Shown piece after piece: positions 1 through 34,644 of a stretch of DNA of 34,687 bases. Location: the IMG/VR virus record IMGVR_UViG_3300032373_000069, positions 1 to 34,687 of that record. One strand, 5' to 3'. The translations under genes were made by a program, and so were the position numbers. Numbering within the stretch: the first letter of the stretch is position 1; each line of letters begins with the position of its first letter. The notes beneath the pieces are model-generated. The model worked only from the letters and a program-made list of their open reading frames with translations, ran no database searches and was not told where the DNA came from. This DNA is from a virus (lineage: Duplodnaviria; Caudoviricetes).

Positions 1-127
1 CGCGATAGACTGAGATTGCAGCCGACTTAACCGCTTCTGGTCCTCAAGGTCTGACGGGGGGATAGGGAACTTTGAAACGGTCATTAGAACTCTCCGTCCT
101 CAGTTACCGTCACATCAACTCCTTGAG
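1..127. repeat. Terminal direct repeat, copy 1 (identical to 34561-34687); genome is circular or circularly permuted
   Basis: cgcgatagac...ccttgag matches the last 127 nt exactly. The gene at 34309-34644 continues directly downstream of 84-1589 across the junction (overlapping stop/start). Confidence 0.97.
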
Positions 128-1589
128 CGTGTGTCCATAGCGCATCCTCTGCAATATCGACCTGAACTCTCGCATACCTGCATGAGCGAGTGAAATGGGC
201 CATGCCGTTCGCATCAACTGCGTTGGGGCCATCTGTGCTTGTCGCTCCGCTTGGGCTGTCACGGTACGTTAAACTAGCCGTATATGTGCCTCCATCGACA
301 TAAGGTCGAACACCGTCAAAGTATATGCGCTCATTTGGCTTGGTGAATAGCTCCATGCCGCCAAACTCAGAAGTCGTCATTGTCGCAGGTAATGCGCTGC
401 CGGAGAAAGACGATAATTTGAATGATGAATCGAATGCAGAAAGTGTAAGCTGGCCTTCAATCCACGTCCGACTATCAAGGGACGTTGTGAGCGTGTCCAT
501 GTTGCCGAATGTGTCTAGCTGGTCGAGCGTGTAAGATTGCGTGATGTTTGAGAACAGGGAAAAGCTGCTTTGTTTGCCGAATGTCCAGCGCTGCGTTTCC
601 CAGTTGTAAACGATCAATGTATCAGGCGTTCCGTCCGAAGAAGGAGAAGACGGGTAAGACCAATATACCTGCTTGTTTACGGGATCAGCAGCCGCAGTAA
701 CTCTATCAATGTAATTAAAGTCGAGGTCATTAAAGAAATACTCATCAACCTTTTGCGCTCCAATCGGAATGGACTGTGTGCCGTCAAATAAGAAGAATCC
801 ATCTTCTCCTATGTACGCTGCAAATGGGCCGACATTGACAACCGATCTAGGAATGAAAGCACCGCGTCCACGTTCGATCTCTGTGAAGCTGAATACGAGT
901 GGCGCACCTTCATAGCTAACACGATAGATCGACTTGTCCATGAAGATAGCGCCGTCAGCACCACCAACAGCACCCGTAATATGCTGCACTTTTCCGCCTG
1001 TTGGCAAATCCTGTCTGTCTGACTGCACTTGAGCAGCAGCGCTTGAACCAATGGAAGGCCATGTTGTCGGGTCATCGATAGCACACCACCAGACGCGGTT
1101 TGGAACGTTCCCGTCTGTGCTGTCCCAAGTGTTACCGACCATAACGAAGTTGTTAATGACTGAAATATGTTTTGCTCTTGGTGCCGCCGCAGCAAGGTCA
1201 GCGAATACAGTGCTTGTTCCCATGACATAGCTCTGAATTTGGTCTGTTGGGCCGTTACAAGCTATTACATTGTCACCGTAAGCTACAAACTCCCAAGCAT
1301 CTTCATCCGCAGTCGTATAAGCGCCAGTGCTTTTCGATATCTCGTCCCACGTTGTCGATGTGAGAATATATAGGTCGTTTATATCGCCAGCGAACGTTGA
1401 GAACGTGCCATCCGATTCGCGGAAGGCATTAGCGCCCTGCGGTCTGTTGGGGAGCGCATCGACAACTGACGACAACTTAGGCATTGGCCCATAAGACGTG
1501 CCAGTTGTTGACAATACGTTCTTAGCAATCGTTGAGCCGGGGTTCTGATAGTCTGCTTTGTCAGGTTCCCATGAGCCAAAAGGAAGCAT
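84..1589 (-). CDS. Tail nozzle / head-closure (DNA stabilisation) protein, P22 gp10 / T7 gp12-like
   Basis: 501 aa, beta-rich with repeated W/Y-x-W motifs typical of propeller nozzles; directly follows the adaptor gene in podoviral order. Confidence 0.7.
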   Translation of the reverse strand: MLPFGSWEPDKADYQNPGSTIAKNVLSTTGTSYGPMPKLSSVVDALPNRPQGANAFRESDGTFSTFAGDINDLYILTSTTWDEISKSTGAYTTADEDAWEFVAYGDNVIACNGPTDQIQSYVMGTSTVFADLAAAAPRAKHISVINNFVMVGNTWDSTDGNVPNRVWWCAIDDPTTWPSIGSSAAAQVQSDRQDLPTGGKVQHITGAVGGADGAIFMDKSIYRVSYEGAPLVFSFTEIERGRGAFIPRSVVNVGPFAAYIGEDGFFLFDGTQSIPIGAQKVDEYFFNDLDFNYIDRVTAAADPVNKQVYWSYPSSPSSDGTPDTLIVYNWETQRWTFGKQSSFSLFSNITQSYTLDQLDTFGNMDTLTTSLDSRTWIEGQLTLSAFDSSFKLSSFSGSALPATMTTSEFGGMELFTKPNERIYFDGVRPYVDGGTYTASLTYRDSPSGATSTDGPNAVDANGMAHFTRSCRYARVQVDIAEDALWTHAQGVDVTVTEDGEF

Positions 1590-4671: not shown

Positions 4672-4947
4672 TCACAATTCGGCAAGAATAAGTAGCAACG
4701 CCAGATCGTCGTCGCTTTCGGCTACTCCATCCACTGCCGTTATGGATGGAACCATGATCTTATTTATCTTGTAAACCTGTTCACTTTGTACGCTCTTGGC
4801 CTGTATATCCCCGGCGCTTTCTTTTGCTGCCTCCCGGCCAAAATGTTCTTCTCTAAGAGTTGAAAGATACCTATTCGCCTTTTCTTCATCGAACCCTTTA
4901 GGAACGCCACCTGTTCGCGGCTGGTTGCATAAAAGTGCCGCTAACAT
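4672..4947 (-). CDS. Hypothetical protein
   Basis: 91 aa ORF coupled to its neighbours; ends DDDLALLLIL. Confidence 0.55.
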   Translation of the reverse strand: MLAALLCNQPRTGGVPKGFDEEKANRYLSTLREEHFGREAAKESAGDIQAKSVQSEQVYKINKIMVPSITAVDGVAESDDDLALLLILAEL

Positions 4948-6179
4948 TACTTGTTGTCGTACAGGTTAAGGCTGGTTCGCCCGATGACATCAACATCACC
5001 TTGCCCCCCAGATGCAGCAGTCGCAGTAAAGTACAGGACATCTCGTGCGTTCAATCTGAACCTAATCGGGTCGACCAAACTACTCTCAAGCGTGACAGAT
5101 GTATCAATGCTATCTCTGTAAATCTCATACCTAGTACCCACTAACCGACTGTACGAATAGCCTTTTAGTTCTATCGTCTTCGACTTGTTGCTTGTGATGG
5201 CCTTGAACCACACCATAGCTGCTGATGCCGTTTGGTTAAACCCTGTGTGGAATATCATCTGCTGCGTCACTGATCCAAGCGCAGGGATAACGGCTTGAAC
5301 TGAACCACCTGTTGTCGCTGTGACTGTAATGTCATTGGCGTTGTATGTTAGACCACCGTTGGTGTTTACCGCTGCTCTGTTAATGCCTAGACCAGTGAAG
5401 GATGTAACGTCACTGCCTGTACTGCCGAGCGTATGAACTGCAAGGGCCTGATTGCCATCAGCATCTAAGTAATAGATCACTAACGATAATGCGCCTGTCG
5501 TGCCGAGGCCATCAGTCGTGCTGTTGTATGCAATGGTGAAAGTCGATGCCGTTGTGATAATCGTGAAGTCATTAGGTGATGCTGCCCACACGACTTGCTC
5601 TGTACCAGCGGTCAGTGTTTCACGATAGCCAAACTTGTTCCAACTTGTGACGCCACTGCGTAGCCCTCTAATCACCTCATCTTGGTAGTTAGTCGGGCGA
5701 GTTGCTGCACCGTCACTGTCCAAGCCAATACTCTGGTTGCCGGGTGTGTTCGATGCCCTGAACGTGCCGTAGTAGCAATGCAAACGCATATATGTTTGAG
5801 CATCTGTGTCGTTGACATAGCGAAGTCGGAAGTATCGCGGCCCTTTTACGGCTGTGTGAAACTCATGGATGTTCGCCGCAACGGTAAAGCCTTGAACTGG
5901 GAACGTGCTGTCTGCGTTGACACCATCGTTAGAGAAATCGAAGTAAAGCGTCCCAGCGCCATCCGTCTTCATCGACACCATAACTTCTGACTGGTTGTTC
6001 TGTTCCCATTCGCCAGTGAACGTGGCTGATGCGTCTAATGGCTCAAGCGTTGTGTTGCCCGTACTCTCAAACGAATATTGCTCCACAATCTCGTTATGAA
6101 CTTCGCCAGCATCAGTGGTGACTTTGTTCGTGTTGAGGCTTTTCCCTGTACCTTCTACCGGGATAAAGTCATCGCTCAT
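4947..6179 (-). CDS. Putative virion structural / head-associated beta-rich protein
   Basis: 410 aa, Thr/Gly/Ser-rich, located between portal and scaffold. Confidence 0.5.
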   Translation of the reverse strand: MSDDFIPVEGTGKSLNTNKVTTDAGEVHNEIVEQYSFESTGNTTLEPLDASATFTGEWEQNNQSEVMVSMKTDGAGTLYFDFSNDGVNADSTFPVQGFTVAANIHEFHTAVKGPRYFRLRYVNDTDAQTYMRLHCYYGTFRASNTPGNQSIGLDSDGAATRPTNYQDEVIRGLRSGVTSWNKFGYRETLTAGTEQVVWAASPNDFTIITTASTFTIAYNSTTDGLGTTGALSLVIYYLDADGNQALAVHTLGSTGSDVTSFTGLGINRAAVNTNGGLTYNANDITVTATTGGSVQAVIPALGSVTQQMIFHTGFNQTASAAMVWFKAITSNKSKTIELKGYSYSRLVGTRYEIYRDSIDTSVTLESSLVDPIRFRLNARDVLYFTATAASGGQGDVDVIGRTSLNLYDNK

Positions 6180-11335: not shown

Positions 11336-12655
11336 TTAATCATGGCACCCGCCAAAGCCTGTATCGCAGTATGTATCGTTTTCTTCATCGAACACCCAAT
11401 CAGATTGGGCTGTGGCGTGGGCGATTAACTTTGCCCATGTCATGGACTTGTCTGGGTTTCTGAAATGCCTTCCGGTTGATTCAATGTCTGCCCACCACTT
11501 TGCCCTGTCTGGATGATATTTAGCAAGGAAAGCCCTTGATTTTTCCCCCTTTAAGAAGCATCCGTCACAGTTTGATAGGGATGAATGAACATTTAAGTCA
11601 AAATCGTTCTCTGACCACCACACACCTATATCTTGCTCAATAATTCCTGCCGTGTGCAATGGTGTAAATGTTTCCCAAATGTCATCATCCTTTAAATTGT
11701 TAACCCGTCGATTTTCATCTGCACGAAACCCAACGACAGCGGCCCACTCAGTATAGCCGCTGCGGATCATATATTCCTTGGCTGGCAATACTTTGAGGTC
11801 AGAGGTGCAGAACCTTGCCATGCTGTTTGGCGCAAATTTGCGTTCCTCTATAAGCGCACTAAATGGCTCGCCGCTGCGTGACGCGGTTTTGTAATCTACA
11901 ACCTTGAATGGGGTAGGTGCTGCTGGTGCGGTTTCTACGTTTGCGCCAGTGGCTTTAAACAAAAGTTTGTCTATTTTCTCCACCTTCCCAAAATACTCAG
12001 ATGCAATAGATATCAGCTTTGATATATCTTTAGCGTTCCCATCCCAAGCACCATACCGTGGCTCTTTTGGCAAATTAAATATTGCTACACCCCCGCAAGC
12101 TAAAGAAATTTGCATAAGTGTTTCCCGTAATGTTTTTTCGTCTGGCATCACGTTAAGAACATTAGAAGCCATGACAACAGGATATTTTCTATCCAGTGCG
12201 TTTATGTCGTGCAAGCCGGGGACAATGTTACGCCCTATCTCATAAGGCGTTGCTGATATACCTTGATCTAATAGCACCTTTGAGTGCATAGCAAACTTGC
12301 CAGCACCGAAGTCCAGAACCGGACCCTGCAAGTTTGCTGCGACATATCTTGGTACTATAGCTTTTGCACCGATAGCCTTTGAAGCGCGGCAGGTCTTATT
12401 GGATTTTTTCACCCATTCAGGCCACCCGAGCCTTTCAAGCCACACAATAGGGACGTTCCATTCTTCGCTGCACCGTTGCACAAAGTCCAAAGTCTCCGGC
12501 ATCTCTCTGCCAGTGTTTTGGAATAAGACATGGCAATCGTCAGGCAGCACACCATTATACCGATCTAATATCTTCTTGAGCATATACCCAGATGTTCGAC
12601 CACCGCTGAATTGTATAGCGACTGGCCCATCCGGTAATTTGTATGGATCGCTCAT
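11336..12655 (-). CDS. PAPS-reductase/DndC-like PP-loop protein with an inserted SAM-dependent methyltransferase domain (likely start 12655)
   Basis: FSGGRTS PP-loop, NTGRE, RFCT..LK, GFRADE, NCDGCFLK and a C-terminal Cys motif; internal VLDFGAG...SNVLNV domain. Confidence 0.85.
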   Translation of the reverse strand: MSDPYKLPDGPVAIQFSGGRTSGYMLKKILDRYNGVLPDDCHVLFQNTGREMPETLDFVQRCSEEWNVPIVWLERLGWPEWVKKSNKTCRASKAIGAKAIVPRYVAANLQGPVLDFGAGKFAMHSKVLLDQGISATPYEIGRNIVPGLHDINALDRKYPVVMASNVLNVMPDEKTLRETLMQISLACGGVAIFNLPKEPRYGAWDGNAKDISKLISIASEYFGKVEKIDKLLFKATGANVETAPAAPTPFKVVDYKTASRSGEPFSALIEERKFAPNSMARFCTSDLKVLPAKEYMIRSGYTEWAAVVGFRADENRRVNNLKDDDIWETFTPLHTAGIIEQDIGVWWSENDFDLNVHSSLSNCDGCFLKGEKSRAFLAKYHPDRAKWWADIESTGRHFRNPDKSMTWAKLIAHATAQSDWVFDEENDTYCDTGFGGCHD

Positions 12656-13086
12656 TGTGCTGCCCTTTCGATTGCATCCCGAAGCATCATTCTTCGTCTG
12701 CCCCATACTTCCAAATTTTCATATAACTCAGCCCAAGTTGGGAAAAACTTACTCGACCTGCGTATTGTCATCAGAACGTATTCAACGACATCTGCCGGGT
12801 ATTCTTCCAAGTCCTCAACGTAGATTGCTATTATAGCAGCCTTATCCATGTCGTCCATGTTTCGCATCGGCATAGTTAAAATCATTTTCTGAACCAGCCT
12901 TGCGATGGCCTTCTTGGGCAGTGGCTCACAAGCTGCTACCGCCTCGTCCAAATGCGTCAGGTCAACATTAGCAATATCAAATCCCACAACATCGTTCGTG
13001 TCACTCCCAGCCCAAACGGGTTGCAACCTCATCCCCGATTTCAAAGATGCTTCGAGGCTTTTTGTTATCTCTCCCGGGGTTGTCAT
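12652..13086 (-). CDS. Putative helicase loader/inhibitor-like replication protein (start uncertain)
   Basis: YVEDLEEYPADVV......R...KFFPTWAEL motif; directly downstream of the initiator, in the lambda P position. Confidence 0.55.
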   Translation of the reverse strand: MTTPGEITKSLEASLKSGMRLQPVWAGSDTNDVVGFDIANVDLTHLDEAVAACEPLPKKAIARLVQKMILTMPMRNMDDMDKAAIIAIYVEDLEEYPADVVEYVLMTIRRSSKFFPTWAELYENLEVWGRRRMMLRDAIERAAQ

Positions 13087-26308: not shown

Positions 26309-28071
26309 CCTGCATATCCATACATTTTAATTTCACCTGTGAAAGTTGAAGTGCTAGGCTGGAACCGTATGCCCTGCCAAGCGCCTGTGCCTCCATGGTA
26401 TCTGGAAAATCCTGTGTATTGGTAAAGGTTAGTGTCATCCCAGAAACCCTGCGAGAATATAGTTTTATACCCGGTTGTTGACTCAGGAAGTGCGAGCAGG
26501 TGCCGACTAGCGCAATTGTTGTTACGCGCTATCCCGCATACCCCTGTTGCATCGCTCGTTGATCCATAAGCACTGGTAGTAGAAGCAGCATACCCGCCGT
26601 TAATCGTCCAAGAATAATTTGCAGTTATCCAAGCGCCGCCAATTTTTACTTCAAATTGCATCTCCACGTCAGACGCGGCTGCATCAAAATCATAAAAAAT
26701 AAATTCAATAAGAGGGTATGTAGCGTCATCGAATAAGCCGTCAAATGTAATTAATGACGATGCCGATGGGCTTGCAGATGACAAAAGAACGCGCCCACCT
26801 CCACCCGCGTCTTGGAATGTTGGGGCTGCACCTGCGCCGTTCGACGTTAAGACTTGCGCTGCCGTTCCAACTGCGACAACAGCAGGTGCGCCAGTAGCGT
26901 CCCATGTAATCAATTCACCGTCTGTGCCATTGGCAAAGTCAGCAACTTCTATATTGGCGATTGAGTTGCCAGTGCCGTTGGCATCGAAAGTTTTATTCGT
27001 AAACGTGTCTGTCGATGATGCGGTCACGCCAGACCCGACAACAGCCGTTCCGTCTGCCTTTGTGTAGCAAGTGCATTGAACCGTGTTAGCGCCTGTGGAT
27101 TGCCACTCAGCAACGTCACCCGCCGCCGTTGTAATATCTGCCCCGCCGGGTAGGTCTTGTGTCGTGGCATGGTGCGTCAGCGTCAGGATGCCATCAAACT
27201 GCGTGTAGTAATGTCGGTCAGCCGCAACAGTATGCGTTGCGATTGTCGTGGTCCCGGTGACATCAAAATAGTTTCCGTCCGTCCCGACTACGAGAGGGTC
27301 TGCGGATGCAAGGTCTGCACCCTTCACACCGAATACCCCAGCGCTAACCCCTGCCGCCGCTGCACTCGCTGCCGCACTTGCAACATCAGCATTGGTTGAT
27401 ACTACGTCTGCGTTAGTGCTTACAACATCAGCATTCGTTAGAACTACGTCTGCCGCAGCTTTTGCAGCATAATGCTTGGCGCTGTACTCAGTCCCATCAA
27501 CCGTGTCATCTTCTGCGGCAGTCGCCCATTCTTTTGCAGCGCCTTTTCCAGCCGTATCTGTGACACCTGTGCCGCCGATAGCATACGCCTTGGCGCTGTA
27601 CTCAGAACTTGCTACGACACCATCTGTTTTTGAAGCCCATTCCTCTGCGAGTGCGCTCGTCGTAACGTCAGTGAAAGCCGACACTATCTGAAAGTTCGTT
27701 CCGTCATAAATGGCGATGACCTTTTGGCCTGAGATAATATCACCAGCCGCCATATTTGTGGAAACTGACTTCTTCAATATCTTAGCGCCAAGGCTATCGA
27801 CGTTGATCGTCACTGACCCTGTATTCGTTCCAGAAGCTTCAAATGCGATGACAAGTCCGTCATAATATGCTGACAGAGTTTGGTTCGCCGCAACAGTGAT
27901 GACATCAGCAGTGCCGCCGGGGGTGATAGACGCATTCGTGTCTTTATCCCAACGGGCAATGATACCTTCAAGCGCTCTCGCACCGTTGTTGACCGTTGAC
28001 GGTAGCTGGTTTTCTGGGAACCTCGCCGTGTTTGAAGCGTCTACAACATTAAGATCATTTATTTCAGCCAT
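26305..28071 (-). CDS. Tail fibre / receptor-binding protein
   Basis: N-terminal P..Q.PS.VNN.AR anchor, NTG.VTINV..LGAK and YDGTNFQ, Ala/Thr-rich shaft, QVLTSNG.GAAPTF, C-terminal G.IKMYG. Confidence 0.85.
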   Translation of the reverse strand: MAEINDLNVVDASNTARFPENQLPSTVNNGARALEGIIARWDKDTNASITPGGTADVITVAANQTLSAYYDGLVIAFEASGTNTGSVTINVDSLGAKILKKSVSTNMAAGDIISGQKVIAIYDGTNFQIVSAFTDVTTSALAEEWASKTDGVVASSEYSAKAYAIGGTGVTDTAGKGAAKEWATAAEDDTVDGTEYSAKHYAAKAAADVVLTNADVVSTNADVVSTNADVASAAASAAAAGVSAGVFGVKGADLASADPLVVGTDGNYFDVTGTTTIATHTVAADRHYYTQFDGILTLTHHATTQDLPGGADITTAAGDVAEWQSTGANTVQCTCYTKADGTAVVGSGVTASSTDTFTNKTFDANGTGNSIANIEVADFANGTDGELITWDATGAPAVVAVGTAAQVLTSNGAGAAPTFQDAGGGGRVLLSSASPSASSLITFDGLFDDATYPLIEFIFYDFDAAASDVEMQFEVKIGGAWITANYSWTINGGYAASTTSAYGSTSDATGVCGIARNNNCASRHLLALPESTTGYKTIFSQGFWDDTNLYQYTGFSRYHGGTGAWQGIRFQPSTSTFTGEIKMYGYAG

Positions 28072-29969
28072 TATTCTTGTGCTCCATATGCGCCGCCAAG
28101 GTATCCACCAACGCCGCTTGTGCCGCCTTGGAACATTCCACCACCATAGCTTAATGGTCGCATAATGTTTCCACCTTTCATTATTTGAAATGCTTGTGCT
28201 TTATCTGCCGCTTTCGGGGAAGCTAACAGTTTAGCAACAATTTGTGAAACATCTTCTGGCTGTGGTGCCATTTTATTTAAAGCGCCACGAAGAAGCATAG
28301 TCGTCGGGTCTGCACCAGCGACAACATCAGACGCATAGTTGAGCAAACTATTACCAGCACTCTGTCGTTGTGATGTTTGTGACCCACTAAGTTCAGCAAA
28401 TGTTTTGGCTTTTGCGGCTTCACTCTTTACTGTTTTACGGAACTCACGTGCGCCAGCCTTCCCAAGGAGATCGTCCATTGCTTCTTTAGCGGCTCTCGAA
28501 TTAAATATATTTGTAACGTCAGCGTATGGCGGCTTGCCTTTGATCTTCTTGACTAATACCGAAGCAGCACCCGAACGGAAAGCCTCAAGTTCATGCGCCC
28601 CCATTTTGGCAATGTCAGCTTTGCCAAACCCAGCCATAGCGCTTTTTTCGGCATCCAAGCTCAGCATGAACTTACGCCCATTCTCGACAGCTTCCATCGC
28701 CGCAGATGCACCAGCATATTCTGATCGGGCTTTTTTGTAATCTGGGATTATGTCGTCCAAGTGGTCGCGGAATTTGTCACGGAAGCCTTTTGCGCTAGTA
28801 CCCATGACTCCGCTCTTATTAAATTCTTTTTGAACAACCGCATCCAAGCCCTGCTTCATATAGTCGAGCATTCTTGCGTTAGGCTGTGCATACACCTTAC
28901 CAGCGTCTGTCTTGGTAAATAGTTTAGGTAAAATTACACCCTCACGCTCTGCGATTTTTTGAGCGAGCTTGTATGCCTGTTTTGCGTCTTTGGTTTCAAA
29001 AAAGCCCTTTAATTCGTCAGTAAGTGGCACCTCTGTCTCGTAGACCTTGCCATAATTTTTATTAGCCAATGCCCGCCTCGACCTGCCGATATCGTCAATC
29101 GTGTCAGCAGCACCACCGCTTGATATTTTCTTGCTGACCTGCGGCAAAATGCGGGCGTCCTGTGAGACTTGTCGAGCAGCTAAGAACTTCGCCTGATTGC
29201 CACCGCCAATGCTTCTGACAGCAGCGCCAGCCGCACGTTGAGTATCCACAGGAGCGTAATCAGCGATAACGCTTAGGGGGTCGGCATTGACCTTTTGCTC
29301 TAATGCAGCGACTTGCTTTCTTGGGATGGTCCCTTGAATTACGTTTGCAGCTTGTCTCTTAGCTCCACCGGGAATCATGCGACCAACAGCCGAAGCGCCC
29401 TTTTGAAAACCATGAGCCACACCCGGCAAGATAGCGCCACCAGCAAGGCCAACGCCTGTACCTGTCGCAACGTCAGCAGCCAATCCGCCCATGTCACCAT
29501 CGACAAAACCGTGTTCACTCATTCCAGCGCCAGTCAGACCGCCTTGAGCGCCGCCTTGAGCAGCGCCATAGAGCATCTTTGCGCCAAGGCCTAGCCCTTT
29601 GCCAGCTAACTTAAAGCCTGCGCCACCGACACCCGTTAAAAGCGCTCCAGCGCCCTGTAAACCGAGTGTTCCGAGTGTCCCAAGGCTATCTTCTGTCTGC
29701 TTCATGTCAGAACGCACTCTAGCTAAGTGCTTCTGGTATGCTTCACCTATTGGCTTGCCTTGGACAATTGCGTCTGCACCCGCTTGAAATGCAGCAGAGA
29801 TTTCGTCACCAAACCCCATCGCAGCGCCTTGGCCGAAGACTTGCTGTGCATAGTCGCCCCAACTCGGCTCAAACCCATTCGCATCAGGAACTTGCGCAGC
29901 CGCTTTAGACTCTAATTCTTCAAGCCTATCTAGTTCTCTTAATCTTTGAAGCTCTTCTTGAGGGGTCAT
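28071..29969 (-). CDS. Large DNA-ejection / internal virion protein
   Basis: QGAAMGFGDEI motif, long Gly/Ala amphipathic region, helical C-terminal part; P22 gp16 position. Confidence 0.7.
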   Translation of the reverse strand: MTPQEELQRLRELDRLEELESKAAAQVPDANGFEPSWGDYAQQVFGQGAAMGFGDEISAAFQAGADAIVQGKPIGEAYQKHLARVRSDMKQTEDSLGTLGTLGLQGAGALLTGVGGAGFKLAGKGLGLGAKMLYGAAQGGAQGGLTGAGMSEHGFVDGDMGGLAADVATGTGVGLAGGAILPGVAHGFQKGASAVGRMIPGGAKRQAANVIQGTIPRKQVAALEQKVNADPLSVIADYAPVDTQRAAGAAVRSIGGGNQAKFLAARQVSQDARILPQVSKKISSGGAADTIDDIGRSRRALANKNYGKVYETEVPLTDELKGFFETKDAKQAYKLAQKIAEREGVILPKLFTKTDAGKVYAQPNARMLDYMKQGLDAVVQKEFNKSGVMGTSAKGFRDKFRDHLDDIIPDYKKARSEYAGASAAMEAVENGRKFMLSLDAEKSAMAGFGKADIAKMGAHELEAFRSGAASVLVKKIKGKPPYADVTNIFNSRAAKEAMDDLLGKAGAREFRKTVKSEAAKAKTFAELSGSQTSQRQSAGNSLLNYASDVVAGADPTTMLLRGALNKMAPQPEDVSQIVAKLLASPKAADKAQAFQIMKGGNIMRPLSYGGGMFQGGTSGVGGYLGGAYGAQE

Positions 29970-31150
29970 TGATTTGGTCCCCTCTGGTGTTTTGCTCTAA
30001 GCATCTCCAACTCTGCAAAGTCACTGTCTGTCATATTGGGCGGCTTTGCTCCCGTCGCGAATGTGCTTCTATCAATTCGCGGCTTATATGGGTCATAGAT
30101 ACCACTGAAAGCGCGATTCGCATCAAGCCCCTCGTAACCATAGCTGCCAAACCTCTTCTTTTCAGACGCTAATCTGTTTTGCACCGTTCTGTCAGCAGTG
30201 TCGAATTGGTTTCTGGCTTGGCCTAAAAGTTTCTTGCGCTCGGTAGGGGTCAAAACGTCACCGCTCGACACCTTGCTCAACATACTTTTTAAATACCCCG
30301 GCAATCCACCCGTCTGCGCAGCCATTCCAAATTCACTTTCTCGAACGACAGAGGTAGGGTCGAGCATTTTCATAAAGCCGAAGATCAGGGCAAGGTCAGC
30401 AGCGCCCTGACCTGATGCCAAAACCTGAGAAGGATTTATTAGCACCCCGTCAACCGCGAATCCATCTCTGATTTGTTGCGTTGCCATTGCCGGGTTGTCT
30501 TGCGTTGCCTCAAGTGCTTTGAATGCGTTGATACGCTCCAGCGAGTCTTTAAGTGCTGTCGAGACTGTCTTGTTTGCGTCACGCTCAAGGGTGACAACAT
30601 CTTTTGCCGACAACCTCCCCTCACCGGAAGCCTTGAGGCGCTCAATTTCCATCTTTCTTTGGTGCTCTAGAAAAGAAGTAGCATTCGCTGCTTTCGTGGC
30701 AATGTCTGATTGTGCGACACCTAGCCCGTCAGCCTCAAGCATGGCGCGTCTTGCCGGGTCCATTGCCGTTTGCGCTTGTCCAGCGGCAACGGTCGGCCCT
30801 TGAGCCCCTCCCATCTGCTGAGACATAGAATATCGGTCAGCCGCTAATTGCTGTTGTTTCTGTTGCGCTTGTTGACGCTTTGCAGCTTCGATGGCAAGGC
30901 GTGTCTTTTCAGCTTCGGCTTGCATCTGCTGGTATTGCATATCAGCAATTTGGCCTTGTTTTGCTTTGTCGATTGACGATTGATACCCTTGACCGAAACC
31001 AGCGCCGCCCTGACCTAATGCACTTAAAAATGATGTAGGCATAGTTGACGGGCCACCAGCAGATGACAGGTTTTTGCCTAAGTTCAACAAGCCTTGATAC
31101 ACCGCTTGATGCTTATCACCGGGGCTTACTAATAATGGTTTATATGCCAT
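29966..31150 (-). CDS. DNA-ejection / internal virion protein
   Basis: Gln/Ala-rich; D.ALIFGFMKMLDP.SVVRESEF motif; P22 gp20 position. Confidence 0.7.
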   Translation of the reverse strand: MAYKPLLVSPGDKHQAVYQGLLNLGKNLSSAGGPSTMPTSFLSALGQGGAGFGQGYQSSIDKAKQGQIADMQYQQMQAEAEKTRLAIEAAKRQQAQQKQQQLAADRYSMSQQMGGAQGPTVAAGQAQTAMDPARRAMLEADGLGVAQSDIATKAANATSFLEHQRKMEIERLKASGEGRLSAKDVVTLERDANKTVSTALKDSLERINAFKALEATQDNPAMATQQIRDGFAVDGVLINPSQVLASGQGAADLALIFGFMKMLDPTSVVRESEFGMAAQTGGLPGYLKSMLSKVSSGDVLTPTERKKLLGQARNQFDTADRTVQNRLASEKKRFGSYGYEGLDANRAFSGIYDPYKPRIDRSTFATGAKPPNMTDSDFAELEMLRAKHQRGPNQ

Positions 31151-31162
31151 GCTTAAATATCC

Positions 31163-31996
31163 TTACTGAGGCCAAATGCCGCCTTTACCAAACAATGTCC
31201 CGCCAATGCCCGCCGCCGTCGAAGCTGCACCGAGATATTCAGCGCCCTTGTTGCGATAGATTGGAGTTGTTTGGGTGCCTTGAGCACCATACCCGCCCTT
31301 GATTAATGCCATGTAATTCGCAAGCGCGTCTTTCGGTGCGTTCTGTTCTGCCTGATAACGGCTGATTTGGTCTTGCAACTCTGCACCAGCCATACCCTCA
31401 CGCTCTTGACCAACATTCTTTAGCGCATTGATGTCAGTGTAATCTTGGTTTGCAAGTGCTGGTGCAAGCGTAGCTGCTTGTAGCTGCTTTGTACGCTCAT
31501 CACCGTACATCTTCGAAGCCATAGAGCCAGATACGTCGCCAACTTGACGAGCGATTGATTCACCAGCCCGCCGCTGCATATTCTCTTGAGCACCAGAACC
31601 ATACCGACCCTTCGCACTAACGCCCGATTGAATGCCGGGAAGAATATCTTGCTGCCAAGAGTCAATCATTGGGCGCGTTGCCGCGTCAACTGCCTGTTGG
31701 AAGTATGGGTTCTGATTGGACAAGTAGTCACCCGATAGCGTGTCACCGACCATGCCTTGAGCAGACTGAGTGACAGGAGAGCCAGCTAACGCCCGATCCT
31801 CTTGCATCTGCAATCCCTGCTCAGATTGTTGAGAGAACGGGACAACAGTGCTATTAGGGTAATATACATTAGGCTTCTCCAGAACATCGCTCTGCGCAAG
31901 CTCAAAGCCCTTCTTGAGATAGTCTTGCTGCGGTTCCCATGGGGAACTGTCAGTCTGAACTGTCTGATATGTTGATGGTTCGTCGTCGCCACTCAT
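31163..31996 (-). CDS. DNA-ejection/pilot protein (likely start MSGDDE at 31996)
   Basis: PW..QQ.YL, NPY, G.YGSG, Gln-rich, Gly/Ala hydrophobic C-terminus; P22 gp7 position. Confidence 0.7.
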   Translation of the reverse strand: MSGDDEPSTYQTVQTDSSPWEPQQDYLKKGFELAQSDVLEKPNVYYPNSTVVPFSQQSEQGLQMQEDRALAGSPVTQSAQGMVGDTLSGDYLSNQNPYFQQAVDAATRPMIDSWQQDILPGIQSGVSAKGRYGSGAQENMQRRAGESIARQVGDVSGSMASKMYGDERTKQLQAATLAPALANQDYTDINALKNVGQEREGMAGAELQDQISRYQAEQNAPKDALANYMALIKGGYGAQGTQTTPIYRNKGAEYLGAASTAAGIGGTLFGKGGIWPQ

Positions 31997-32691
31997 TATA
32001 CAATCCTCGTAATAGGGGCTGGAATAAAGTCGTTGCCTTCCCACCAGTTCCGTCTGAATTGGTATTGAGGCTGTGGGATGGGTGCCGCAGTTGGGTTTAG
32101 AACGCTTGGGCCAGCTTGTGGAGGGTATATAACGCCCGTGTAGTCGCTGCCACCACCAGAATCCCCTTCATTCGATACGTCTGCTGCTGTGGGAGAACCA
32201 GTAATGCTAATGCTCGCCTCTGTGTCTTGGTTCGCGGCTTCCATTGCCTCTGCCAGAGTGCCTTTTGCATTGTTAAACCCGACAACGTTGTCGGTAATGT
32301 CATTCGAAATAGGAGTCGCCAAGTCAAAAAGACCGCTTAGAAATCCTTCAACATTATATCCCTCAGTCTCTGCCGCTGGGCCTGTAAAGCCCGGTCCTCT
32401 CATTGGCGCGTTATTTTTTGGGTTAGTGTTAAAGAACGCTGGAGCCCATGATGGAGGGCCGACATTAGACGGAGAGCTACTAGGCGCATCAACGCTATAG
32501 CCATGCCCGACAGGTGATGCCATGCCTTGCGTATTCGCTGCGGAAACGTCACTCAAACCGGGGTGTCCGGGGGGTTCGCCGCCACCATCGCCACCGGGGC
32601 CTGCACCAGCAGCGAAACACATAGACGCAATGTTCTTGCGATCTAAATGCTCAAATGAGAATGCATCCAAGCTGTTACAAAATTCGTCCAT
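31996..32691 (-). CDS. Gly/Pro/Ser-rich low-complexity protein, putative virion component
   Basis: 231 aa; GAGG RBS; TAATG-coupled to the ejection gene; leader ends MCF before AAGAGPGGDGGG. Confidence 0.65.
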   Translation of the reverse strand: MDEFCNSLDAFSFEHLDRKNIASMCFAAGAGPGGDGGGEPPGHPGLSDVSAANTQGMASPVGHGYSVDAPSSSPSNVGPPSWAPAFFNTNPKNNAPMRGPGFTGPAAETEGYNVEGFLSGLFDLATPISNDITDNVVGFNNAKGTLAEAMEAANQDTEASISITGSPTAADVSNEGDSGGGSDYTGVIYPPQAGPSVLNPTAAPIPQPQYQFRRNWWEGNDFIPAPITRIV

Positions 32692-33148
32692 AGCGTCCTC
32701 TAATCGTTTTCATGTCTCGCGCTCTGACGCGTTTGCAGTCGCCGGGGATGATAGCCTTTAATTCTTCTAAGCAATGCCGAACGTGTGACGGGAGGATAAC
32801 AATTTCTGCTCCCCATAGCTCAGGACCAGAGCGCCAATCGCTAGGCTGCATCTGCCTGTTTCCAGCCATTTTTGTATGTGCAGTTTGCGGAGGTAAGTAC
32901 GCCCAAGTGACGAAACCAACAGGCGCATGGTTGTGAATGAACAGGTGAAATTGCTTGAGTTGAATCGGAGCCATCAAATAGTTCTTAATATCCGAGACTG
33001 TCCAATCCTTGTATCTGTCGAACATACTCATCAACGACACGACAAAGCCGAGTTTCATTGAGTCATGGAAAGGCTGTTCGCTAGTGTGATAAATGCTCAT
33101 GTCAGGGAGCGTTGAGTGCAGCGCATGGCTTGTCATAGCTTCACCCAT
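32675..33148 (-). CDS. HlyC/RtxC-family toxin-activating acyltransferase paralogue with divergent active site
   Basis: LG.V..LM, W.V..I.....PIQL.Q, PVGFVTWAYL, DWRSG.ELW; catalytic SxxH replaced by FDRY and DxIAPFG by EIVILPS. Confidence 0.82.
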   Translation of the reverse strand: MGEAMTSHALHSTLPDMSIYHTSEQPFHDSMKLGFVVSLMSMFDRYKDWTVSDIKNYLMAPIQLKQFHLFIHNHAPVGFVTWAYLPPQTAHTKMAGNRQMQPSDWRSGPELWGAEIVILPSHVRHCLEELKAIIPGDCKRVRARDMKTIRGRYGRIL

Positions 33149-33891
33149 GATATAACCATTCCAGCAGGGTCAAATTCCCACCACCGCTCTTTCGTTGTTT
33201 CTGCTCTTGGGCTTTTATGATGGTTGTTATGCCATCCTTCGCCAAAACTGAGGAAATTCAGCCACCAGACGTTTTTGCTCTTGTCTTTTGCATCGTGGCT
33301 TTGGTATCCCCAATTCTTATGAGCAGCCCAATTCAAGAAGCCCTCTGCGAACATCGTCAACGCGGCAGGGACGAAGAATCCCCAGTATAAGCCCTCAACA
33401 CCAAACGCAGCGAATATGCACATTGCAAAGACTGCAACGACTTGGAAGTAATACTTGTGCAAGAATGCGCAGAACGGGTCGCGGATAATTTTCTTCATTC
33501 CAGCGAAACCAGAAACCTTTTCCATATCGTACCGGACAGCTTGCATATTAAAAAACCCGATATCGCTGCGATGGGGGTCGCCGTCACGGTCTGAATATCT
33601 ATGATGTGATTTATGAATCACGGCCCACCCTAGAGGACTGCCGCTGCAACTTACTGCGCCAAGGAGAATGAATATCCGACGCAATGTCTCATTACGGAAC
33701 TCAAATGCGCCGTGGCTCAAATGTCTGTGATAACCGACGATCACGCCAAGGCCATTCATTAAGAACAACATGACGTAAGCTATTGCGATGCCATGCCAGC
33801 TTAATTCAACAAGCCCTATAGTCGGCAGCAAAAGCACACACGCAATATTAAATGCGAACAATAGTGCTATTTTGTCAACTGACTGATGCAT
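33133..33891 (-). CDS. Membrane fatty acid desaturase, Delta9 (OLE1/DesC-like)
   Basis: Three His boxes HRHLSH, HKSHH and HNNHH; SD..GDPH, GEGWHNNHH, WWEFDP; TM segments. Confidence 0.95.
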   Translation of the reverse strand: MHQSVDKIALLFAFNIACVLLLPTIGLVELSWHGIAIAYVMLFLMNGLGVIVGYHRHLSHGAFEFRNETLRRIFILLGAVSCSGSPLGWAVIHKSHHRYSDRDGDPHRSDIGFFNMQAVRYDMEKVSGFAGMKKIIRDPFCAFLHKYYFQVVAVFAMCIFAAFGVEGLYWGFFVPAALTMFAEGFLNWAAHKNWGYQSHDAKDKSKNVWWLNFLSFGEGWHNNHHKSPRAETTKERWWEFDPAGMVISWVKL

Positions 33892-34309
33892 TATGGCTCC
33901 TTGGTTTCACTATCAAATCGGAACTAACCCGTCTTGATTTCTTGTGCCGCCGCCATTCTGCTTTTGGATAGTCTGGGAATAGGTCGCGGCATTTACGGTA
34001 CAGTTTCCGAGCATCCCCAAATGGGGTTATGAAATCTGCGAAGATCAGAACGTTGCCGCTTCTCCAATCTTCAACTTGCAATCTATAGTTACCTTCAAGA
34101 AACCTATCAGCTTTTTCCCTGTCTGTAAATCCCCATGATACCCAGCCGTGCAATTGGCTATCTCTAAACAATCCGATGTTTTGCCTGAGATTTACCGGGG
34201 GGATTATTATTCGTGAAACCTGCTCCATGTTCCAATTCTTATGCACATCAGATTGCGACATCAAATGTATAACGTGGTCTAATGGCGCAGGGGCAAAGGT
34301 TTCTTTCAT
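33875..34309 (-). CDS. HlyC/RtxC-family toxin-activating lysine acyltransferase
   Basis: SDVHKNW (SxxH), WVSW, EDWRSG, DFITPFGD..KLY; aligns by eye along its length with E. coli HlyC motifs. Confidence 0.9.
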   Translation of the reverse strand: MKETFAPAPLDHVIHLMSQSDVHKNWNMEQVSRIIIPPVNLRQNIGLFRDSQLHGWVSWGFTDREKADRFLEGNYRLQVEDWRSGNVLIFADFITPFGDARKLYRKCRDLFPDYPKAEWRRHKKSRRVSSDLIVKPRSHNASVS

Positions 34310-34644
34310 CAGCCTACCAGAATGATTTTGTACGTCTTGTCAGTGTTTGCGTCGTTCGTGTGGATAAGTGACATTGAACCGTTAACCGGGCTTGTGAAGT
34401 CTCTGTAAGGCCAAATAGCTGCGGCTTCTGCGTTGACTGTCGTAGGGACTGCGATTGCAACGGTGTTGAATCCTATACGGCTGTCAGTAACAGTCGTCGC
34501 AGCGACATTCTCAGTTACGGTCACGTCAAGAACGTTGTTCGTTCTGCCGTTTGAAATACCCGCGATAGACTGAGATTGCAGCCGACTTAACCGCTTCTGG
34601 TCCTCAAGGTCTGACGGGGGGATAGGGAACTTTGAAACGGTCAT
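34309..34644 (-). CDS. Small putative virion (tail-associated) protein
   Basis: 111 aa, follows the nozzle gene across the junction; NGRTNN, TTVTDSRIG, H.N...DKTY..I.VG. Confidence 0.6.
   Translation of the reverse strand: MTVSKFPIPPSDLEDQKRLSRLQSQSIAGISNGRTNNVLDVTVTENVAATTVTDSRIGFNTVAIAVPTTVNAEAAAIWPYRDFTSPVNGSMSLIHTNDANTDKTYKIILVG

Follow-up and report, generated by a model that had tools for sequence, protein, structure and literature searches.

HlyC-type acyltransferases and a membrane desaturase in a podophage virion operon: candidate enzymes for acylation of internal virion proteins

Introduction

How podophage ejection proteins enter the outer membrane of the host is an open question. 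Virus record IMGVR_UViG_3300032373_000069 (IMG/VR; Duplodnaviria, Caudoviricetes) holds a locus that bears on it. The record is a circularly complete genome of 34,687 nucleotides (nt) with a 127-bp terminal repeat, and this whole stretch is called the window here. On its minus strand, within the virion operon, two genes of the HlyC (toxin-activating acyltransferase [TAAT]) family flank a membrane fatty acid desaturase (Des), followed by a low-complexity protein (X) and the first ejection-protein gene (Ej1). Why would a phage keep fatty-acyl enzymes among the genes for its particle? A first-pass annotation had read the three enzymes as one dedicated lipidation pathway for virion proteins. Our analysis divides that proposal. 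Acylation of a virion protein by phage HlyC is, taken alone, probable. We favor only tentatively, at somewhat less than an even chance, a two-layer scheme in which the first acyltransferase (HlyC1) modifies Ej1 and/or X, and an optional module of Des and the second acyltransferase (HlyC2) gives X an unsaturated chain.

Results

HlyC1 is the resident gene of the slot before the ejection genes

HlyC1 (positions 33875..34309, minus strand, as for all cassette genes) matches the TAAT family PF02794 at 71 bits (cut-off, 25) and aligns with ApxC (PDB structure 4WHN) by sequence only (E 5e-13). It carries S20, H23, and D92, and H23 and D92 align with the SPLH and FIDW motifs of ApxC. This His/Asp pair is the TAAT catalytic dyad, needed by both CdiC and the RTX activators (PMC8510554). 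The Ser, His, and Asp are conserved in 136, 133, and 133 of 155 aligned HlyC homologs. The ratio of nonsynonymous to synonymous substitution (dN/dS) is 0.11 against the homolog in locus L004; a broad alignment of 34 HlyC sequences was too divergent to scan. The cassette genes are real and intact, and all three enzymes are under purifying selection (dN/dS 0.06 to 0.15).

HlyC1 sits between the nozzle and the first ejection gene. This is the slot that an acetyltransferase-family gene (IVP-A, T7 gp13) occupies between the tail tube or nozzle and the first ejection gene (PMC4819975, PMC6775973). In a census anchored on the nozzle gene, 62 loci formed 37 clusters at 90%. A GNAT-like gene was the only slot gene in 24 clusters and HlyC in 4, with one cluster each for HlyC-Des-HlyC (the window), Des-HlyC-GNAT-like, and ICTA-Des (the ICTA domain is described below). 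No slot gene was called in six clusters, three of these incomplete. The first-pass annotation had called a GNAT-like gene common at this podophage position. Our GNAT-like calls used our own two-sequence profile, ESM neighbors with PF00583, and the annotation of one record; the slot gene itself has no Pfam match, and neither HlyC1 nor HlyC2 matches PF11090 or phrog_308. The two families nevertheless meet in protein P0214 (334 amino acids [aa]), a natural fusion of IVP-A (phrog_308, E 5e-40) and HlyC (117 bits). In L092 and L119, a GNAT-like gene and an HlyC gene stand side by side, each preceding its own partner. Within this group of phages, the IVP-A slot has HlyC1 as its resident gene.

Des and HlyC2 form a swappable insert

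In the nearest relatives of HlyC1 (L004 and L005, 91%; L006, 58%), HlyC1 is followed directly by X, with no desaturase between them. The nearest desaturases (L091, 96%; L092 and L119, 70%) are accompanied by HlyC2, and L092 and L119 have no HlyC1 but a GNAT-like gene preceding Ej1. The X of L091 is close to those of L004 and L116 apart from its beginning, where it agrees with the window and L092; because only the start differs, we infer that a new N terminus of X came with the Des-HlyC2 insert. HlyC1 and Des plus HlyC2 are two modules, the second a swappable insert.

An obligate three-gene unit, as in the single pathway first proposed, is ruled out, since HlyC occurs without a desaturase in all 78 loci of an HlyC-centered viral scan as well as in the nearest relatives of HlyC1. 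Independent assortment of desaturase and hlyC genes had been named as a refutation of that pathway, and it holds in one direction. The desaturase needs a partner, adjoining either HlyC or an ICTA protein, and HlyC does not.

HlyC2 has the TAAT fold and an altered active site

HlyC2 (32675..33148) matches PF02794 at 79.3 bits (cut-off, 25). Its structure model (pLDDT 78) has ApxC 4WHN as its best Foldseek match (E 7e-8, TM 0.65), with the runner-up at E 0.02. The predicted HlyC/ApxC fold is thus supported for HlyC1 by sequence and for HlyC2 by model. The active site is noncanonical, with F43, Y46, and E115 where HlyC1 has S20, H23, and D92. Tyr replaces the dyad His in 16 of 155 aligned homologs and Glu the dyad Asp in 17 of 155, and the F-x-R-Y/E pattern recurs in the L092 homolog at 36% identity. 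A recent HlyC duplication is ruled out by the roughly 26% identity of HlyC1 and HlyC2 and their separate clades. Decay of HlyC2 is likewise ruled out by its dN/dS of 0.11 to 0.15 and by the altered site kept in L092.

Variant HlyC forms occur elsewhere. Proteins P0126 and P0178 have tandem HlyC domains, the second without the SxxH motif. The siphophage pelagiphages HTVC026P and HTVC112P encode an F-x-R-Y-type HlyC directly before a large tail protein beginning Met-Gly-Gly (siphophage HlyC coordinates, L007:7992-8405 and L280:2929-3315), and the HTVC112P copy lies right after minor tail protein L.

Phage HlyC genes neighbor virion genes

The 78 loci of the HlyC-centered scan group into 21 clusters at 60% identity, and 58 of the loci extend 900 bp or more in each direction; like our other locus scans, this one relied on short sequence patterns and on match lists of limited length. 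A head, tail, packaging, or IVP gene was near in 15 of 21 clusters clearly and in 3 probably; in 3 it was not. The gene after HlyC fits an N-terminal motif in 16 of the 20 clusters that have such a gene, compared to 2 of 105 other genes in the same loci. This motif, defined post hoc, is M-[GSAN][GS][GSDE], or a run of Gly/Ser/Asp behind a leader whose last residues are C/R-F/Y. Leader ends of the C[FY] kind occur in 7 of 20 HlyC clusters (6 by pattern, plus L229). Almost all phage HlyC genes thus sit within virion modules, in line with the first-pass inference that the window HlyC enzymes act on phage proteins.

HlyC is annotated as a toxin-activating acyltransferase in the cultured phages HTVC026P, HTVC111P, HTVC112P, HTVC115P, and CRP-235. 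As in our loci, the next gene has a small-residue start, beginning Met-Gly in the four records examined; unlike the window, these phages have no desaturase annotated nearby, and two have HlyC at the siphophage tail-tip position. In roseophage CRP-235, gp29, which follows gp30, begins MGGGGGD. The strict motif fails for three of four cultured partners (starts MGGV, MGGI, and MGAI), and what HlyC partners have in common is a small first residue.

X and Ej1 are candidate targets

Protein X (31996..32691) is rich in Gly, Asp, Ser, and Ala, has no Pfam, PHROG, or NCBIfam match, and is located after HlyC in L004, L006, L111, L116, L118, L119, and L124. It is a candidate acylation target and may be an extra internal virion protein. 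A GAGG Shine-Dalgarno-like site lies upstream of its first ATG. Its predicted 26-residue leader (32614..32691) ends Cys-Phe, and removal of this leader would expose Ala-Ala-Gly-Ala-Gly-Pro-Gly-Gly; the leaderless X of L092 and L119 begins MGAAAGPGG. The window X has three Lys, one within the leader, and no Lys is conserved in X, which makes RTX-style lysine acylation of X doubtful. The leader Cys is also doubtful as an obligatory lipid acceptor, as Arg-Phe replaces Cys-Phe in L213 and L225 and many partners are leaderless. The C terminus of X carries a WWEGN motif. In the extended form WWEGN-x-F, the motif is C-terminal in HlyC-linked X (window 31996-32060) and N-terminal in L123:2885-3937 and L136:10659-12092 (as YWLGN), possibly as a packaging or docking signal.

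Ej1 (31163..31996) is a gp7/gp14-like DNA ejection protein (phrog_4287, E 1e-12) with a probable start ATG at 31996 (MSGDDE) and a C-terminal LFGK motif. LFGK is present in six of seven distinct complete Ej1 proteins of HlyC1-type phages (one as GQK) and in none of the GNAT-only Ej1 proteins shown, a pattern confounded with kinship. Many GNAT-slot phages (L125 to L161) have an Ej1 in which an extra C-terminal domain of about 80 to 100 aa replaces the hydrophobic tail. The acylation target is likely X and/or Ej1.

The desaturase clade is linked to HlyC or to ICTA proteins

Des (33133..33891) matches PF00487 at 79 bits (cut-off, 29.7). Its three His boxes, H55-x4-H60, H93-x2-H96H97, and H221-x2-H224H225, are invariant in 15 sequences, and dN/dS is 0.06 against L091. 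With all Pfam matches above cut-off and the boxes intact, the first reading of two HlyC-like open reading frames (ORFs) around a three-His-box desaturase stands. The Des family profile matches SCD1 (4YMK) at E 1e-27, and the SCD1 segment W-A-R-D-H, near the second His box, reads W-A-V-I-H in Des. The NCBIfam DesA model scores 68.5 bits against a cut-off of 400, and "Delta9" serves for Des as a family label.

The desaturase sample of 133 loci fell into 75 clusters at 90%. In its trees, built without cyanophage viral desaturase (vFAD) sequences, Des belongs to a clade of 21 clusters (SH-aLRT 88, 94, and 97 in three tree builds). Nineteen of the 21 adjoin HlyC (5: window/L091, L092, L093, L013, and L022) or an ICTA protein (14); one is cut upstream, and one lies in a T4-like island. 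The clade is therefore tied to virion-protein genes rather than metabolic islands, in support of the first reading. HlyC and ICTA were never both found at one desaturase locus. The five HlyC-linked desaturases, a group chosen by gene context after tree inspection, are rejected as a single clade by the approximately unbiased test (p-AU 0.00017), and since they are not one clade, partner switching happened more than once. A genome scan for a cellular desaturase source gave only two distant loci (29 to 31%), its narrow patterns making it a weak test.

ICTA is a 105- to 120-aa C-terminal domain, Cys-bearing and helical, that begins GG-[TK][YI][IV]CT on a Gly/Asp-rich virion-module protein (for example, L010:1235-1573, L015:5610-5972, L023:5550-5918, and L123:3557-3937). 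A Gly/Asp linker precedes it, both in ejection-type proteins and in a T4-like structural protein of 1546 aa. For the TYICTA type, a desaturase is the next gene in all 28 loci with room (30 found, 2 incomplete; the seeds were desaturase neighbors). Desaturases of two further lineages also adjoin ICTA, at least three lineages in all, and a near-relative ICTA-desaturase pair is common to a podophage and a T4-like baseplate-type structural gene. In L123, which belongs to the phage family of the window, one protein opens with an X-like WEGN motif and closes with ICTA, a desaturase is the next gene, and the 2.2 kb covered include no HlyC. Given the mutual exclusion, ICTA may stand in for HlyC.

The predicted ICTA fold is a five-helix bundle (pLDDT 80) with no PDB match above Z 4.5 and, in BFVD, only unnamed phage proteins as matches; the missing PDB match of this model does not establish a new fold. 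ICTA has no Pfam, PHROG, or NCBIfam assignment. The NCBIfam CFI-box-CTERM model, considered for its resemblance to ICTA, gave no match for 10 ICTA domains at E<=10, in searches whose filters drop weak matches, and the term CFI-box-CTERM was not found in a literature search. The window genome has no ICTA domain.

Relation to known systems

The enzyme families are known; the arrangement would be a variant of lipidation of the TAAT type, a reading for which gene context gives good support. HlyC1 shares family, fold, and His/Asp dyad with HlyC, CyaC, and ApxC. The locus differs from theirs in its place in a virion operon, the Tyr/Glu site of HlyC2, and the desaturase partner. It is also no RTX toxin operon (rtxCABD): pattern searches of genome ORFs of at least 60 aa detected no repeat of the GGxGxD type, and family scans of 39 of 143 ORFs gave no type I secretion family. 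The first-pass annotation had likewise reported neither. Nor is it a class IV contact-dependent growth inhibition (CDI) locus (cdiBCA), with no cdiB or cdiA beside the HlyC genes and phage virion genes as neighbors.

The class IV CDI enzyme CdiC is a TAAT that lipidates a non-RTX protein and anchors CdiA in the outer membrane (PMC8510554). What the two have in common is a TAAT whose substrate, putative in the phage, is the non-RTX product of an adjacent gene. However, CdiC acylates an internal Lys of a surface filament, whereas the candidates here are phage internal proteins, possibly modified at the N-terminal amine. IVP-A/T7 gp13 resembles HlyC1 in slot position, GNAT-like fold, and the natural fusion, but HlyC1 is not a PF11090 protein, an extra protein X accompanies HlyC, and IVP-A is given no substrate in the excerpts of PMC4819975 and PMC6775973.

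Cyanophage vFADs (DesC-like) are, like Des, phage-borne membrane desaturases with three His boxes, and their action on the C16 chains of lipids has been shown in yeast (PMC5776448). They belong to T4-like cyanophages and act on lipids, whereas the window clade lies mostly in podophage virion modules beside HlyC or ICTA, and the context of Des is P22/SU10-like podophage genes, not a T4-like cyanomyophage. JamB is a membrane desaturase working on chains bound to acyl carrier protein (ACP) (10.1101/291195). It has its own ACP and ligase; none was found in the window genome, where ORFs of at least 60 aa have no ACP-like motif by pattern search.

A literature search, with supplements and subscription papers outside its scope, found only a figure-legend mention of phage HlyC and no description of ejection-protein acylation or podophage desaturases. 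A search of PMC8954989 and 10.64898/2026.09.03.749273 for acylation likewise gave no match.

Genome setting

The genome is that of a P22/SU10-like podophage: Pfam and PHROG matches identify its portal and coat as P22-type and its adaptor as SU10-type. The minus-strand order is nozzle, 111-aa gene, HlyC1, Des, HlyC2, X, Ej1, and two putative ejection genes. It is valid across the record ends because the genome is circularly complete. The nozzle/tail-tube gene (84..1589, phrog_3287), upstream over the circular junction marked by the terminal repeat, is followed family-wide by the conserved 111-aa gene (34309..34644), which lies between it and the acyltransferase slot. Downstream, at 28071..31150, are the two putative ejection genes (394 and 632 aa; phrog_13634 and phrog_5880, both PHROGs of unknown function). 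The place first given to the cassette, between the nozzle and three ejection genes, is thus supported for the nozzle and Ej1 by PHROG matches and for the other two ejection genes by position only. The overlap of neighboring genes reported earlier measures 1 to 17 nt at each ORF junction from the 111-aa gene through Ej1. Cassette GC content is 0.45 to 0.48 versus 0.49 to 0.52 in the other virion genes measured, a difference not striking enough to indicate foreign base composition.

Other features lie apart from the cassette. Between the nozzle and the 111-aa gene, a further variable slot holds inserts of 217 to 913 aa, several beginning MAVLNYTPQ (L004:4957-5610, L111:9175-10791, L116:9175-11004, and L092:2656-5397). 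A 456-aa PAPS-reductase-domain protein (window 11336-12706, phrog_424) in the replication region may be a DNA-modification gene, and a 410-aa protein between portal and scaffold (4947-6179) has no Pfam, PHROG, or NCBIfam match.

Discussion

We propose that HlyC1 moves a fatty-acyl chain, probably from host acyl-ACP, onto a protein inside the virion, either Ej1 or X or both. Acyl-ACP is the donor for TAATs, and C16:1 is among the chains that they can transfer (PMC8953716). Where the Des-HlyC2 insert is present, X would receive a predicted unsaturated chain, making the desaturase an optional tailoring enzyme. The acceptor is most likely the N-terminal amine exposed after removal of Met or the leader, a site we favor because HlyC-partner genes share a small-residue, Gly/Ser/Asp-rich start and X lacks a conserved Lys. 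The other candidate site is Gly-Lys at the C terminus of Ej1. After ejection, such a chain would favor partitioning of Ej1, or of X if it is packaged, into the outer membrane of the host, like the chain that CdiC adds to CdiA. P22 gp7 offers a precedent for leader removal, as its 20-residue leader is removed by host OpdA (PMC8402733).

Several observations weigh against this proposal. By analogy, gp7 itself is one: its mature N terminus is readable by sequencing, that is, not blocked, though P22 has an IVP-A homolog, which speaks against N-acylation as a general rule. In HlyC2, Tyr and Glu stand at the dyad positions. None of the 78 HlyC-scan loci has a desaturase, and no Des-HlyC fusion is among the 120 listed of 206 longer homologs. 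Both background matches to the N-terminal motif are ejection-type proteins, and the motif could thus be a feature of ejection proteins and not of acylation. In its strict form, it also fails for the window X (CF, then AAGAGPGG) and for the desaturase-linked partners except L093, all of which fit a looser pattern of a small residue followed by a Gly-rich run. Regarding the desaturase, one member of its clade, L104, comes from a T4-like island, and the His-box surroundings of Des are indistinguishable from those of T4-like island desaturases. ICTA, too, often occurs without it: of 560 viral loci of the KIVCT type, the best 80 include just 10 in which a desaturase comes next (4 of 16 clusters, 2 of them seeds), and the cultured pelagiphage HTVC033P has ICTA (gp76) with no desaturase.

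The desaturase substrate is the weak step, as Des may act on a carrier-bound chain, a protein-bound chain, or a lipid. The main rival arises here, because the sequence near the second His box of Des is unlike that of the acyl-CoA desaturase SCD1 and like those of island desaturases, and cyanophage enzymes act on lipids. In this alternative, HlyC acylates a virion protein, and the desaturase is a late-expressed auxiliary gene that acts on host membrane lipids (lysis or fluidity) and merely uses the slot. The desaturase-free HlyC loci and L104 fit such a gene. However, a generic lipid gene would have no reason to adjoin HlyC or ICTA in 19 of 21 clusters, to switch repeatedly between these partners, to accompany ICTA on a structural gene of a myophage, or to associate with ICTA from at least three lineages. 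We consider this alternative unlikely.

A second alternative keeps the slot and drops the long lipid, with the HlyC-like genes acting as IVP-A does, either as short-chain (acetyl) transferases or as noncatalytic assembly factors for ejection proteins. The common slot and fusion P0214 suit it, Pfam labels T7 gp13 a probable scaffold, and the dyad His is missing in HlyC2 and some cultured pelagiphage homologs. Yet the catalytic residues are kept in most of the 155 homologs, L092 and L119 hold a GNAT-like gene and HlyC together, each before its own partner, and the desaturase link is left unexplained. This makes the alternative quite unlikely.

It is very unlikely that Des and HlyC2 make or move an unusual acyl group onto a nonprotein target, be it a small molecule, host lipid A, or another lipid of the envelope, with a block to superinfection as one conceivable purpose. 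In favor of this reading, the window and L092 have the altered HlyC2 site in common, and desaturases on carrier-bound chains do build natural products (10.1101/291195), but no ACP, ligase, or ketosynthase was seen in the genome scans (pattern search for ACP; 39 of 143 ORFs), the insert carries a changed X N terminus, and all the genes are packed within the late virion operon. Finally, HlyC1 as sole catalyst, with HlyC2 a partner subunit for chain choice or for linking HlyC1 to the desaturase, recalls the tandem proteins P0126 and P0178 but is most unlikely given L092 and L119, which have a desaturase and an HlyC2-type gene and no second HlyC in the fetched region.

A broader reading would be that tailed phages widely lipidate injected or tail-tip proteins by means of interchangeable IVP-A-type GNATs, TAATs, or a Cys-bearing, cis-acting ICTA, with desaturases recruited repeatedly to tune the anchor to the membrane of the host. 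We regard this as rather doubtful; if true, it would give a function to the T7 gp13 slot and would make some phage "auxiliary" desaturases virion-maturation enzymes.

A TAAT in the gp13 slot, its natural fusion to IVP-A, and a linked desaturase offer a concrete and cheap test, a mass shift on a small protein. Should X or Ej1 prove to be acylated in this way, phage particles would bear lipid modifications made by phage enzymes, the reach of TAATs would extend past lysines of proteins that bacteria secrete, and some phage desaturases would have a role other than membrane fluidity.

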